This document shows positions 910 through 6,852 of a DNA stretch of 30,565 nucleotides, piece by piece (position 1 is the first letter of the stretch; the number at the start of each line of letters is the position of its first letter). The notes beneath the pieces were generated by a model, which made no database searches, was not told where the DNA came from, and worked only from the letters and a program-made list of their open reading frames with translations. Origin of the DNA: a virus (Duplodnaviria > Heunggongvirae > Uroviricota > Caudoviricetes); IMG/VR virus record IMGVR_UViG_2778261446_000008, positions 1 through 30,565 of that record, one strand, 5' to 3'. Both the position numbers and the translations under genes were made by a program.

Positions 910-1763
910 GCACCATCCTGAAATGGGCGGGAAATAAAACCGCCATTATGTCCGAACTGAAAAAACATCTTCCTGCTGGCCCGCGACTGGTTGAACCTTT
1001 CGCGGGTTCCTGTGCTGTGATGATGGAGACGGATTACCCCAGCTATCTTGTTGCGGATATTAATCCTGATTTAATCAACCTCTATAAAAAGATTGTCGCT
1101 GATTGCGAAGCGTTTATATCTCGTGCCAGAGCTTTATTTGAGGAAGCAAACAGGGATGTGGCTTATTACAACATAAGGCAGGAGTTTAATTACTCCACTG
1201 AAATTACTGATTTCATGAAAGCGGTATATTTCCTGTATCTCAATCGTCATGGTTACCGTGGGTTATGTCGCTATAACAAGAGCGGGCATTTCAACATTCC
1301 GTACGGTAATTATAAAAATCCGTATTTCCCTGAAAAAGAAATTCGCGCATTTGCAGAGAAAGCCCAGCGGGCAACGTTTATCTGCGCAAGCTTTGATGAA
1401 ACGCTGGCGATGCTGCAGGTGGGGGATGTGGTGTATTGCGATCCGCCGTATGACGGTACGTTTTCCGGCTATCACACTGATGGTTTCACTGAAGATGACC
1501 AGTATCACCTGGCATCCGTTCTTGAACATCGGTCATCAGAAGGACATCCGGTCATTGTTTCTAACAGTGACACATCCCTGATCCGTTCGCTGTATCGCAA
1601 TTTTACTCACCACTACATCAAGGCAAAACGCAGCATCGGTGTGGCAGCTGGTGAGAGTAAATCTGCAACAGAAATCATCGCTGTTTCCGGGCCGCGCTGC
1701 TGGGTGGGATTTGATCCTTCGCGTGGCGTGGATAGTTCAGCCGTGTACGGAGTACGTGCATGA
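906..1763 (+). CDS. DNA adenine methyltransferase (Dam-like, N6-adenine MTase)
   Basis: N-terminus [11 protein letters not shown]... resembles the Dam AdoMet-binding region, and the catalytic DPPY motif is present (VYCDPPYDG). The track ORF begins at 846, but ATG 906 overlapping the upstream stop is the likely start. Its stop overlaps the start of A (ATGA at 1760-1763). Confidence 0.85.
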
Positions 1764-4174
1764 GTCATGCCGATATGAACAACTGCTGCGGCTTTAACGA
1801 GGCTGCCGCAGCGTTCTCATGGAACAGCCCGAAAAAGGCCATTAACCCTTATCTGGACCCGGCGGAAGTTGCGCCGGTTTCTGCGCTTTCAAACCTGATC
1901 ACTCTGTACGCTGCCGATAACGAGCAGGAACAACTGCGCCGCGAGGCACTGAGTGATCAGGTCTGGGAGCGTTATTTTTTTAATGAATCACGTGATCCTG
2001 TCCAGCGCGAAATGGAGCAGGATAAGCTCATTAGCCGGGCAAAGCTGGCGCATGAGCAGCAGCGTTTTAATCCGGATATGGTCATTCTGGCGGACGTCAA
2101 CGCCCAGCCTTCCCATATCAGCAAGCCGCTGATGCAACGTATTGAATACTTTAGCAGCCTGGGCAGGCCAAAGGCTTATTCCCGCTATTTACGTGAGACG
2201 ATTAAGCCATGTCTGGAACGACTGGAGCATGTACGCGACAGCCAGCTATCTGCATCTTTTCGTTTTATGGCAAGCCATGAAGGGCTGGACGGCCTGCTTA
2301 TCCTGCCTGAAATGAGTCAGGATCAGGTGAAGCGCCTGTCTACCCTTGTCGCTGCGCATATGAGCATGTGCCTTGATGCCGCTTGTGGTGATTTGTATGC
2401 CACCGATGACGTTAAGCCAGAAGAAATCCGCAAAACATGGGAAAAGGTGGCAGCGGAAACCCTGCGTCTGGATGTTATTCCGCCTGCGTTTGAGCAACTC
2501 CGTCGGAAAAGAAACCGCCGTAAACCCGTGCCCTATGAACTCATTCCGGGTTCGCTTGCGCGTATGTTGTGTGCCGACTGGTGGTATCGGAAATTATGGA
2601 AGATGCGTTGCGAATGGCGGGAAGAGCAGTTGCGTGCTGTCTGCCTGGTCAGCAAAAAAGCATCTCCCTATGTCAGCTATGAAGCCGTGATGCATAAACG
2701 TGAGCAGCGCCGCAAGTCACTGGAGTTTTTCCGTTCTCATGAACTGGTGAACGAAGAGGGCGACACGCTGGATATGGAAGACGTGGTAAACGCCAGCAGC
2801 AGCAACCCGGCGCACCGCCGCAATGAGATGATGGCCTGTGTTAAAGGTCTGGAGCTTATCGCGGAAATGCGTGGTGATTGCGCCGTTTTCTACACCATTA
2901 CCTGTCCGTCACGTTTCCATTCCACGCTCAATAACGGCAGACCAAACCCAACCTGGACAAATGCGACGGTAAGACAAAGCAGCGATTATCTGGTCGGCAT
3001 GTTTGCTGCATTTCGTAAGGCGATGCACAAAGCCGGGTTGCGCTGGTATGGCGTGCGGGTGGCTGAGCCGCATCATGACGGTACGGTTCACTGGCACCTG
3101 TTGTGTTTCATGCGCAAAAAAGACCGCCGTGCCATTACTGCATTGTTGCGTAAGTTTGCCATCCGTGAAGACCGCGAGGAACTGGGTAATAACACTGGTC
3201 CACGCTTTAAATCTGAGCTGATAAACCCGCGCAAAGGAACACCGACAAGCTACATCGCGAAATACATTAGTAAGAACATTGACGGGCGTGGTCTGGCTGG
3301 CGAGATCAGCAAGGAAACGGGTAAATCCCTGCGTGATAACGCTGAATACGTTAATGCCTGGGCGTCTCTGCATCGTGTTCAGCAATTCCGCTTCTTTGGT
3401 ATTCCGGGGCGTCAGGCTTACCGTGAACTGCGATTGCTGGCTGGTCAGGCGGCAAGGCAACAGGGCGACAAAAAAGCAGGTGCGCCGGTACTGGATAACC
3501 CGCGCCTTGATGCCATCCTGGCTGCTGCTGATGCTGGTTGTTTTGCCACTTACATCATGAAGCAGGGTGGCGTACTGGTTCCCCGCAAATATCACCTCAT
3601 CAGAACTGCTTATGAAATTAACGAAGAGCCGACCGCCTATGGCGATCACGGCATTCGTATTTATGGCATCTGGTCACCCATTGCAGAGGGCAAGATCTGC
3701 ACTCATGCAGTGAAGTGGAAAATGGTCCGTAAAGCCGTTGACGTTCAGGAGGCGGTAGCCGACCAGGGCGCTTGCGCCCCTTGGACTCGTGGCAATAACT
3801 GTCCCCTTGCTGAAAATTTGAACCAACAAGGGAAAGACAAATCAGCTGATGGGGATACCAGAACGGATATCACCCGCATGGATGACAAGGAGTTGCACGA
3901 TTACCTGCACAGTATGAGCAAAAAAGAACGCCGGGAACTGGCAGCAAGGTTACACCTGGTTAAACCGAAACGGCGTAAAGACTACAAACAGCGAATTACA
4001 GACCATCAGCGACAGCAGCTCGTGTATGAGCTGAAGTCCAGAGGGTTTGATGGTAGCGAGAAAGAGGTCGATTTACTCCTTCGCGGCGGCAGTATTCCGT
4101 CAGGAGCAGGCCTGCGTATCTTCTATCGGAACCAGCGTTTGCAGGAAGATGATAAGTGGCGAAACCTGTATTAA
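1760..4174 (+). CDS. A: replication initiation protein A (rolling-circle replication endonuclease, P2 gpA-like)
   Basis: 804-aa ORF at the position of P2 gene A; contains the active-site tyrosine motif [12 protein letters not shown] typical of P2 A / phiX A-family initiators. Confidence 0.85.
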
Positions 4175-4266
4175 TTACGATGGTTAACCATTCGTGCTCT
4201 TAATAATACCAGGCATATCAGGCTGATAAACGTAAAAAAACGTTTTACATCAGTAAGATTATTATA

Positions 4267-4286
4267 TACTGTAAATATAAACAGTG
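4267..4286. promoter_or_regulatory. LexA box (SOS operator) in the promoter region of the Tum/DinI-like operon
   Basis: Sequence tactgtaaatataaacagtg has CTGT (4269-4272), an 8-nt AT-rich spacer and ACAG (4281-4284), matching the consensus TACTGT-(AT)4-ACAGTA. It lies in an AT-rich intergenic region about 40 nt upstream of a strong RBS and ATG at 4328. Confidence 0.65.
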
Positions 4287-4327
4287 GTTATACATACAGT
4301 ATTGCGTGTGGTGTCATAGGAGGAAAG

Positions 4328-4516
4328 ATGCAGGACTATTTTTTGGAGTCTTTGAAGCTCCAGCGCATTGATTTTTTTCTTAAGCTTGTAGCGGCCAGTG
4401 AGTGTAGTGATGAAGAGAAGGGACTGGCTCTGCAGTGGGTTTCTGAATTGACTGATGAACTCATGGCAAAAATCAGAAGCCACGAATACAACCGCTCAAT
4501 GGATGTCATCAGCTGA
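4328..4516 (+). CDS. hypothetical protein; candidate N-terminal part of a Tum-like SOS-inducible antirepressor
   Basis: 62-aa ORF with a strong RBS (aggagg, 4318-4323) directly downstream of the LexA box; its 3' end overlaps the open frame of the DinI-like gene (4455-4516) in a +1 relationship. Confidence 0.5.
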   Translation: MQDYFLESLKLQRIDFFLKLVAASECSDEEKGLALQWVSELTDELMAKIRSHEYNRSMDVIS

Positions 4517-4526
4517 GGTGACTTTT

Positions 4527-4760
4527 ATGCGCATTGAAATAATGATCGATAAAGAGCAGAAGATTAGCCAGTCTACCCTGGACGCCCTTGAATCCGAGCT
4601 TTACCGTAATCTGCGCCCCCTGTATCCCAAAACGGTAATTCGTATCCGCAAAGGTAGCTCTAACGGTGTGGAACTGACCGGACTGCAACTGGACGAAGAA
4701 AGGAAGCAAGTGATGAAAATTATGCAGAAGGTGTGGGAAGACGACAGCTGGCTGCATTAA
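4527..4760 (+). CDS. DinI-like protein (DinI family, SOS-regulated)
   Basis: 77-aa product from ATG 4527 (RBS gaggtg 4515-4520): MRIEIMIDKEQKIS...VWEDDSWLH aligns by eye with E. coli DinI (MRIEVTIAK...TWESADDWF). The track ORF starts at 4455, but the DinI homology begins at 4527. Confidence 0.75.
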   Translation: MRIEIMIDKEQKISQSTLDALESELYRNLRPLYPKTVIRIRKGSSNGVELTGLQLDEERKQVMKIMQKVWEDDSWLH

Positions 4761-4964
4761 GAAACGTTGCTGGCGTCTGAACTTGTTTCTGGCGTCAGCA
4801 AGGTTGAACAACGAGCCCTTGCGAGGCGTTAGCTCTGTAGTGCATGTCTATGCCGCATGAGATCGCATGATCGTTTGAGGATCGTTTTTGCTAAGGCCCG
4901 CCAGAACTGGTGGGCTTTTGCGTAGATCATGCAGGTGCATGAAAACCACTACATAAAGCGGGCA

Positions 4965-4983
4965 GGCGTGGCGGGGATACGAG
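4965..4983. other. cos-like site (putative cohesive-end / terminase cleavage sequence)
   Basis: GGCGTGGCGGGGATACGAG followed by GCGCGC closely resembles the 19-nt cohesive ends of P2 (GGCGAGGCGGGGAAAGCAC) and 186 as I recall them; it sits in the A-to-Q interval where cos is expected in a P2 prophage. Confidence 0.5.
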
Positions 4984-5085
4984 CGCGCGCTAACTCATAA
5001 ATCCTAGATTATTAGTGGATTTATCTCATTGAAATGTGCACTATTCCCAGCATTGAGTTGTACCAGATGTCTTTATGGAGGGACT

Positions 5086-6852
5086 GTGGCTTTTGTAACT
5101 GATATTCGGCTTGAAGATAATGCTATTGCTGCACCTGCGACAGCACAGGTTATGGCTCAGAGGCTAGGATCTGTATTACGTAAGAGATATGAAGAATTCA
5201 TCCATAAAAGAGAGTGTGCACCAGGCCAAGCAGACTATGATGTAAAAATGGCTAGCAGGGCTTTAGCCGCATTCACTATGTATCAGTTAGGATGTGTGGA
5301 TGATAAGTATGCAGGGGAGTCTGTATGTGATAGTAGTGAAGATGGTGGTATAGATGGAATAGCAATCAACCATAACGAAAAAATCGTTGTTGTTGTTCAA
5401 TCAAAATTTCACCAATCGGGAAACGGCACTTGGACAAGAGCCGATTTTATGTGTTTTAAGGATGCTTGTGAGAAGCTACAAAGTGAAAGATACGAATTAT
5501 TTGATTCCATATTGCAAAATAAAAGCGGGGAAATAAGTGCGGCTTTAAGTAGTTTTGAATACAAGTTCATCTTTGCGATGGCGCATACAGGTAAAAAAGG
5601 TGCTGCAGAGGAAATATTAAATGATATGCGGGAATGGCAATATCAATTAAACGCTGCAGCTTTTACACCTGAGGATGAGCCTAAAGAGAACTGGGGATTT
5701 CAGGTTCATTTAATATCCTCTGAAGATATGATGCATTGGTTACAGAATGGCTCTCGAAATCAAATTGATCTTAACAGGGTTGAAATTGAGCGTTTTGGAT
5801 TTTTGAATGAACCATATCAAGCTTTTTACGGGGCTATTAGTGGTGATCAAGTTGCAGAATGGTGGGAAGAGCATGGTGCTCGATTATTTACAAAAAACAT
5901 AAGGAATATGCTTGGTAAAACAGAAGTGAATGAGGAAATAAAAAAGACAGCTATAGATAATCCTGATATGTTTTGGTTTTATAATAATGGGATTACTGTA
6001 CTGGTTAAGGAAGTTGTTCCTCATAGACGAAACGCAGCTCCTAATATAGAGAGAGGGATTTTTGATTTTCGTGATGTAAGTGTCATTAATGGTGCACAAA
6101 CAGTCAGTAGTATTGGCGCATGTAAAGATGCGCTTGGTGAAAACATATATAGACTCAAAGTGCCAGCTAGATTCATTGTTATAGATGATGATACTGATAA
6201 TTTAACTGCAAATGCAATTACAAAAGCTAACAATTTCCAAAATAGAGTATTGGGAAGAGATTTTGCATCGCAGCAGGCAGATCAACATAGATTGGCAAGG
6301 GAGTTAGTGCTTGAAGGATATCAATATCAGTTACTAAGAACAGATGAAGATCATTCACAGACAAATACGAAAGTCATTGACTTGGATGAGGCGCTCAATG
6401 CACTCGCATGTTTAAGTAAAAATAATACGGTTGTATCGACACTAAAATCAAATCGCGGTAGGTTTTTTGAAAATTTTGAAGGCTCTCTATATAAAACTAT
6501 TTTCAATCCAAGATTAAGTGGTTTAAAACTTATCAATACTGTTCTACATTTTAGAGTTATAGATAAGTTGATCGGTAAAACATTACTATCAGTAGATAAA
6601 ACGACCCATAGTCGCAAGCATTTAATTATTACGCATGGTAATAGATACTATGCGTCTGTACTATTGAGCAACGTTTCTGGGATACATAATAGCTCAGAAA
6701 TTCTTGTTCCAGATGAAAAAAATCTTTCCGAAGAATTAAGTGCATTAATTCAACGTGCTGAAGAGTACATTGAAGATAATTACCCGAATGCCTATCCGGC
6801 AAGATTTTTTGCAAATCCAACGAAAATACAAGAGTTATACGATAATGTTTAA
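5086..6852 (+). CDS. AIPR-like putative abortive-infection protein with an N-terminal PD-(D/E)xK-like nuclease motif (candidate anti-phage cargo gene)
   Basis: Long ORF (track 5029..6852 from a TTG, 607 codons); plausible starts are GTG 5086 (RBS ggaggg 5077-5082) or ATG 5152. Markedly AT-rich relative to flanking phage DNA. Motifs: SEDGGIDGIAI...VVVQSKF (D...QxK nuclease-like) and a central FWFYNNGITVL / INGAQT block that I recall as AIPR-like. Lies between cos and Q and ends at a strong terminator. Confidence 0.6.
   Translation: MAFVTDIRLEDNAIAAPATAQVMAQRLGSVLRKRYEEFIHKRECAPGQADYDVKMASRALAAFTMYQLGCVDDKYAGESVCDSSEDGGIDGIAINHNEKIVVVVQSKFHQSGNGTWTRADFMCFKDACEKLQSERYELFDSILQNKSGEISAALSSFEYKFIFAMAHTGKKGAAEEILNDMREWQYQLNAAAFTPEDEPKENWGFQVHLISSEDMMHWLQNGSRNQIDLNRVEIERFGFLNEPYQAFYGAISGDQVAEWWEEHGARLFTKNIRNMLGKTEVNEEIKKTAIDNPDMFWFYNNGITVLVKEVVPHRRNAAPNIERGIFDFRDVSVINGAQTVSSIGACKDALGENIYRLKVPARFIVIDDDTDNLTANAITKANNFQNRVLGRDFASQQADQHRLARELVLEGYQYQLLRTDEDHSQTNTKVIDLDEALNALACLSKNNTVVSTLKSNRGRFFENFEGSLYKTIFNPRLSGLKLINTVLHFRVIDKLIGKTLLSVDKTTHSRKHLIITHGNRYYASVLLSNVSGIHNSSEILVPDEKNLSEELSALIQRAEEYIEDNYPNAYPARFFANPTKIQELYDNV

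Follow-up and report, generated by a model that had tools for sequence, protein, structure and literature searches.

Downstream of a replication gene of P2/186 type, in a stretch of phage DNA, a LexA box precedes two small open reading frames, ORF1 and ORF2, and this locus raises two questions: whether the module is the switch that induces the prophage upon DNA damage, and why what is a single tum gene in phage 186 would here be divided between two reading frames. An initial inspection of the letters without database searches, referred to below as the sequence-only reading, had taken the module for the SOS induction switch of the prophage, and had left a real two-gene arrangement, a programmed frameshift, and an inactivating indel as competing explanations of the split. 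We analyzed the window, i.e., the whole 30.5-kb stretch of DNA that contains the locus, together with related loci from other phages. The module is very probably the SOS operon and induction switch of a Fels-2/186-type P2-family prophage, in a two-gene form composed of tumA and tumB, and the earlier identification of the switch as a split form of 186 tum is borne out by homology to both halves of Tum, near identity to Fels-2, the tumA/tumB pair of PsP3, and a published account (PMC3121763). Among the three explanations of the split, the real two-gene arrangement is the one that survived; the frameshift and the indel gave way to a variable frame and spacer, an unconserved A-run, intervening stops, and the lack of fusions among relatives.

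The replication protein gpA, of P2/186 type, is encoded directly upstream (1760-4174; Pfam Phage_GPA, E 1.4e-127), and the order of gpA followed by an SOS operon is common to the window, 186, Fels-2, and PsP3. P2-family portal, terminase, capsid, and tail genes fill the remainder of the window, so that, on the combination of these genes with the P2-type gene A, the window is identified by its gene content as a P2-family prophage. The tum module was matched in 1125 of 5426 complete E. coli genomes (about a fifth), and all 28 full-length matches among the 30 sampled were annotated as a 'hypothetical protein' and a 'DinI(-like) family protein'. The immunity region lies outside the window, and the cognate CI was looked at in a close relative: an E. 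coli prophage with a 99.8%-identical module encodes a CI repressor that aligns with 186 CI along its whole length at 32% identity (E 4e-36). The features of the module are collected in Table 1.

Table 1 Predicted features of the tum module and their positions in the window.
Feature	Position	Strand	Basis or remark
Probable -35, TTTACA	4244-4249	+	Inferred; invariant in 10 Fels-2-type loci with diverging flanks
LexA box 1, TACTGTAAATATAAACAGTG	4267-4286	+	Unique in window; 0/100 shuffles; kept in relatives
Probable -10, TACTGT, inside LexA box 1	4267-4272	+	Inferred; invariant in alignment; analogy with 186 p95
LexA-like box 2, CAGTGGTTATACATACAGTA	4282-4301	+	5-nt overlap with box 1; colicin-type dual SOS operator pattern
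RBS of ORF1, AGGAGG	4318-4323	+	Read from sequence; invariant in alignment
ORF1, tumA-like, 62-aa stand-alone antirepressor homologue	4328-4516	+	Counterpart of 186 Tum N-terminal half
RBS of ORF2, GAGGTGA	4515-4521	+	Overlaps TGA stop of ORF1; 5 nt from ATG 4527
ORF2, tumB-like, 77-aa DinI-family protein	4527-4760	+	Pfam DinI PF06183
Terminator-like G+C-rich hairpin followed by TTTT	4894-4919	+	Inferred; RNA fold: 11-bp GC-rich stem, then UUUU

Counterparts of the two halves of Tum

In phage 186, Tum is expressed from the LexA-regulated promoter p95 and inactivates CI (PMC7708051), and the second half of the protein is DinI-like (Lemire et al. 2011, PMC3121763). ORF2 corresponds to this second half. 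The DinI-like character that had been read from its translation was upheld by a Pfam match well above threshold (PF06183, 81.3 bits vs. a cut-off of 24.2, E 6.6e-23) spanning profile positions 1-63 of 63, and the earlier statement that the C-terminal part of Tum is DinI-like agrees with the 41% identity found between ORF2 and 186 Tum residues 71-145 (E 3e-24). ORF2 further shares 100% identity with Fels-2 STM2726.1 and 78% with PsP3 TumB, and its alignment to E. coli DinI (PDB 1GHH, E 2.7e-6) runs end to end, taking in the acidic W-E-D-D region at the C-terminus. Its score against the NCBIfam DinI equivalog (42.7 bits) lies below the cut-off of 111, which marks it as a phage paralogue and not as chromosomal dinI.

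For ORF1, a 62-aa frame that the sequence-only reading had correctly placed behind a strong RBS, the alignment to Fels-2 suggested there likewise gave near identity (97% at the protein level to STM2728), and recognition of the other half of Tum came from profile comparisons. A search of 1.84 billion representative proteins recovered 87 relatives of ORF1, nearly all of them stand-alone proteins of about 50-75 aa, and a broad ORF1-family profile was built from these representative-library relatives. This profile matched residues 5-43 of 186 Tum by hmmsearch (32 bits, E 2.8e-12 with Z=1, as a single comparison) and the 186-type N-terminal family by hhalign (probability 96.5%, E 7.5e-10). The PHROG families provide a second connection: ORF1 belongs to phrog_698 (E 5.9e-38), a family of 'unknown function', the N-terminal 60 residues of 186 Tum match both phrog_698 (E 2.4e-5) and phrog_1993 (E 1e-22), and PsP3 TumA is a member of phrog_1993. 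On the strength of the profile match to Tum 5-43 and the PHROG cross-matches, ORF1 is assigned by sequence comparison to the N-terminal half of Tum, the one without DinI similarity, of which it is a stand-alone counterpart.

Sensitive methods carry this assignment. Pairwise BLASTP between ORF1 and 186 Tum, ORF1 and PsP3 TumA, or PsP3 TumA and 186 Tum returned zero alignments because the sequences are too short and divergent; a narrow profile restricted to close ORF1 homologues received weak hhalign support (P 4.7e-4, probability 32%), and the match of the broad profile to PsP3 TumA was also weak (E 0.0066, Z=1). The proposed homology between ORF1 and 186 Tum consequently rests on profile methods and synteny, and the likely link between ORF1 and PsP3 TumA on PHROG cross-matches and synteny. 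A 1205-aa protein with eight matching stretches in the ORF1 search (P0295) was set aside as a spurious repeat match: it is an NTPase with HEAT-like repeats and was not matched by the broad profile.

Could ORF1 instead be an unrelated small SOS-induced protein with no antirepressor activity, with induction proceeding, for example, through RecA-stimulated CI cleavage or through the DinI-like protein? We consider this improbable. ORF1 is profile-homologous to the portion of 186 Tum preceding the DinI-like region, and the same genomic position and LexA control are seen family-wide, including in ESSI-2-type phages that carry no DinI gene. The 186 record, for its part, credits the truncated products that contain the DinI part alone with no more than 'modulating' SOS induction. 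What keeps the alternative alive is that databases give ORF1 no function (Pfam, NCBIfam, PADLOC, and PDB sequence searches had no match to ORF1, and its PHROG family is uncharacterized), that PsP3 TumA is very divergent from ORF1, and that the direct evidence for the activity of the upstream gene concerns PsP3, a phage of another type: the upstream gene of the split tum of PSP3 carries antirepressor activity, cited as a personal communication (PMC3121763). An antirepressor is the probable identity of this gene, which is routinely annotated as a 'hypothetical protein'.

Taken as the tumA/tumB operon, the module would work as follows, with LexA binding, CI antirepressor activity, and the DinI-like role all extrapolated from work on 186, PsP3, and Fels-2. 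In an undamaged lysogen, host LexA would sit on an operator spanning the -10 region and the early transcript, and so keep the promoter shut. Upon DNA damage, RecA-stimulated self-cleavage of LexA would free the promoter, and the 62-aa TumA-like protein would be made and would bind the 186-type CI repressor of the prophage; with CI sequestered and off its operators, the lytic promoter would fire and the prophage would be induced. The 77-aa DinI-like protein would be an independent translation product of the same mRNA, initiated at its own RBS, and would probably modulate the RecA filament and hence the strength or duration of the SOS signal, before the transcript is ended, probably, by the G+C-rich hairpin with a U-run at about 4894-4919. 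The two-gene LexA-controlled tum switch is an already known, textbook arrangement, and its identification here, in a very common enterobacterial prophage type, adds no new biology; its use lies in annotation and in predicting which P2-family prophages respond to DNA-damaging antibiotics.

The split between the two genes

The sequence-only reading had described the two ORFs as overlapping over 4455-4516 in a +1 frame relation. The frame relation is right for the window, but the genes themselves do not overlap: the ATG of ORF2 lies 10 nt past the ORF1 stop, and the overlap belongs solely to a mechanical 101-aa ORF that begins at an upstream ATG (4455) in the ORF2 frame. The A-run reported in the overlap stretch is present (AAAAA, 4468-4472), and a one-nucleotide shift does join the frames, although the fusion computed at the A-run is of 143 aa and not of the suggested 145 aa or so. 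The spacing of the genes as annotated here, with an RBS 5 nt from the ATG of ORF2, suggests that translation of ORF1 and ORF2 may be coupled.

The same two-gene layout is found in closely related phages. According to Lemire et al. 2011, the tum genes of Fels-2 and PSP3 are split in two by a stop codon (PMC3121763). The pairs STM2728/STM2726.1 of Fels-2 (NC_010463) and orf10/orf11 of SopEPhi occupy the same site after gene A, with the same promoter and LexA operator, and the Fels-2 pair shares the 10-nt spacer and the +1 frame relation of the window. The module of Fels-2 is in fact essentially without difference from ours, whereas the downstream cargo differs (STM2726 and STM2723.1, vs. an AIPR/AbiU-like gene in the window). 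Bunny et al. 2002 is given as the primary source for the split tum of Fels-2. In PsP3 (NC_005340), too, gene A is followed by a LexA box and a pair of separate genes, described in the PsP3 record as tumA, 'similar to 5' end 186 tum; UV induction of prophage', and tumB, 'similar to dinI and 3' end of 186 tum'. PsP3 differs from the window in that its TumA is very divergent from ORF1 (about 14% identity, other PHROG family), that its two genes are in the same frame with TAG and 3 nt between them, and that it has a single LexA box.

To place these observations in a broader context, we compared 12 loci, comprising the window, Fels-2, SopEPhi, SEN8, PsP3, Cartapus, a Yersinia phage, and several Klebsiella phages. 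In 11 of the 12, both ORFs are intact and each has a start of its own, the exception being phage 500465-1. A Tum-like fusion of ORF1 to DinI was sought among the ORF1 relatives in the 1.84 billion representative proteins and none was found. The spacer between the genes measures 3, 10, 11, 12, or 13 nt, and the frame of the second gene relative to the first is 0, +1, or +2. Likewise, a DinI domain was sought in the 120 close ORF1 homologues listed and was present in none (0/120), the longer of these homologues being upstream start-codon miscalls through the promoter. The fused 186-type proteins, of about 146 aa, form a separate family. Based on the variable frame and spacer, the unconserved A-run, an ORF1 tail that evolves in its own frame, and the absence of fused relatives, both the frameshift and the inactivating indel were rejected, and a conserved two-gene arrangement is, on this comparative evidence, the correct reading of the split.

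A programmed +1 ribosomal frameshift at the A-run (GCA AAA ATC, 4466-4474), which would yield a 143-aa, 186-like fused Tum beside the two separate proteins, is the better of the two rejected explanations and is nonetheless very hard to credit. Across relatives we observed neither a conserved slippery site nor a fixed frame relation nor a conserved open overlap: the genes stand in any of the three frames with spacers of 3-13 nt, the A-run is broken in SopEPhi and ST13phi12.1 (GCG AAA AT), and the frames needed for a fusion run into stops soon after the A-run in four lineages (SopEPhi, SEN8, ST437phi4.1, and Yp_MLG42), even if the ORF2 frame is open back to 4452 in the window and its closest relatives and a +1 slip on AAA-A would give a product near the 146 aa of 186 Tum. 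The ORF1 tail is moreover conserved as protein (KIRxHEYxRSMD across 48 distinct homologues), and in its own frame the variable columns number 6 at each of the first two codon positions and 11 at the third, an excess of third-position change. ORF2 has its own strong RBS, and none of the elements that typically stimulate a +1 shift (e.g., a rare codon or a stop codon in the A site) is evident. A lineage-restricted +1 frameshift yielding a fused Tum would be at least as improbable. Least credible of all is an inactivating single-base indel or sequencing error in a once-fused tum, which would make the module a decaying pseudogene of a defective prophage: a homopolymer is a plausible indel site and one metagenome assembly has a frame-shifted product from the A-run (P0248), but the same 62-aa and 77-aa layout occurs in viable phages such as Fels-2, SopEPhi, PsP3, and Cartapus, the module is matched in the E. 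coli genomes counted above with a two-gene annotation in all sampled full-length matches, the start codons, RBSs, and protein-level conservation are kept in both genes, and there was no recent fused ancestor, as the 186-type family is separate, unalignable to ORF1 by BLASTP, and just 41% identical to ORF2 in its C-terminal half.

With the two-gene arrangement retained, the fused gene of 186 can be compared directly. As in the window, 186 tum has a LexA-repressed promoter with its -10 inside the LexA box, an N-terminal region similar to ORF1, and a C-terminal DinI-like region similar to ORF2, but its two parts make up one continuous 146-aa frame behind a single LexA box, and the operon continues with orf97; no orf97 homologue was seen directly downstream of the tum pair of the window. 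The first methionine of ORF2 aligns exactly with an internal GTG from which, in the 186 annotation, a truncated Tum product with the DinI part alone is initiated; this suggests that 186 tum may be a fusion that kept the tumB start. This GTG, the start of Tum95.5 (5293 in our locus L001, i.e., 29292 in the 186 record), is preceded by AAGGAGGG. ESSI-2-type phages represent a further arrangement, with a LexA-boxed tumA-like gene after gene A and no DinI-like gene (loci L004, 1501-1700, and L005, 1501-1713), followed by a convergent regulator and the portal gene. These DinI-less loci fit a scheme of two separable modules that would have been fused in 186 with the internal start kept.

The one exception among the 12 loci carries a small lesion of its own. 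In Escherichia phage 500465-1 (L009, about 914-1231), the DinI-like gene lacks one A (GAAATAATG to GAATAATG), which breaks the usual start region, and the record of this phage annotates a longer, shifted CDS for the gene. This 1-nt deletion is either a sequencing error or a pseudogene.

Predicted operator and promoter of the tum operon

The near-consensus LexA box noted in the sequence-only reading was recovered as the sole CTGT-N8-ACAG within the window. It has three mismatches to the 20-nt LexA consensus TACTGTATATATATACAGTA, a match of a quality obtained in 0 of 100 dinucleotide-preserving shuffles. Of 15 related loci, 14 have a TACTGT-N9-CAG box at the corresponding site 5' of their tumA-like or tum gene, 186, PsP3, and ESSI-2 among them, and the sole locus without it is a point mutant.

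The promoter was placed by comparison, as a strict sigma-70 consensus scan did not report one for the tum region. TTTACA (4244-4249) and TATACTGTA (4265-4273) are invariant across the ten Fels-2-type loci despite their diverging flanks, and the 17-nt spacer between TTTACA and TACTGT matches the annotated layout of 186 p95, whose -10 is recorded as the first 6 nt of the LexA box (TACTGT). By this analogy, TTTACA and TACTGT probably constitute the tum promoter, which the scan would have missed because TACTGT fits just 3 of 6 consensus positions of a -10. The predicted LexA operator thus overlaps the promoter of the tum operon.

A second LexA-like box, absent from the sequence-only reading, overlaps the first. 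Together the two form the pattern CTG-N10-CAGTG-N10-CAG (4269-4299), which occurs once in the window and was also present in 4 of 100 shuffles. The dual-box pattern is kept in 10 Fels-2-type loci, the sole exception among those examined having a CAG-to-CAT change, and is absent from the 186, PsP3, and ESSI-2-type loci, each of which has one box. The same CTG-N10-CAGTG-N10-CAG is found in the ColE1 cea operator, at or after the -10 region and 47 nt upstream of the cea ATG, with 26 of 31 positions identical to the window and 28 of 31 to Fels-2; the flanking promoter sequence and downstream genes of the colicin operon are unrelated to those of the window.

This colicin-type dual LexA operator of the Fels-2 lineage is the only point of the locus that we consider new, and it is mildly so. 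That both boxes are functional in Fels-2-type phages and that the feature has not already been described is a proposal we put forward tentatively, with the balance tilting against it. If both boxes bind LexA, the SOS threshold for induction would be raised or delayed in the Fels-2 lineage, comparable to that of colicin operons with a lethal product, and evolution would be able to tune the rate of spontaneous induction in P2-family prophages through the number of operator boxes. The dual operator, a small refinement in itself, could then be a reason why Fels-2-type and 186-type phages differ in induction threshold.

The point mutant is Klebsiella phage ST15-OXA48phi14.1 (L013, upstream of 701), in which the CAG common to both LexA boxes is changed to CAT (aaacattgg). 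Weaker LexA repression of tum would be expected in this phage.

Downstream end of the operon and adjacent cargo

Downstream of ORF2, the segment 4758-4935 folds with z = -3.4, and the G+C-rich hairpin with a U-run that it contains probably ends the tum transcript; a consensus scan for terminators did not flag this hairpin. Two further hairpins were seen in the vicinity. The first, a strong 17-bp imperfect hairpin without a U-run, lies directly 3' of the ORF2 stop (4763-4805). The second, small and terminator-like (4505-4522), spans the ORF1 stop and the ORF2 RBS, at a junction that reads differently in SopEPhi, SEN8, and other relatives. Rfam gave zero matches at E <= 1 over the interval 4100-5100.

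Between the tum module and the portal gene, the window carries a low-GC (about 35%) cargo gene on the plus strand (5029-6852) that encodes an AIPR-family protein (Pfam AIPR, E 7e-35; PADLOC AbiU, E 7e-25). The same site holds other genes in relatives, including a TIR-domain protein, a member of the TIGR04255 family, and STM2726. The interval from tum to portal thereby has the look of a hotspot for anti-phage defence genes in P2-family prophages.
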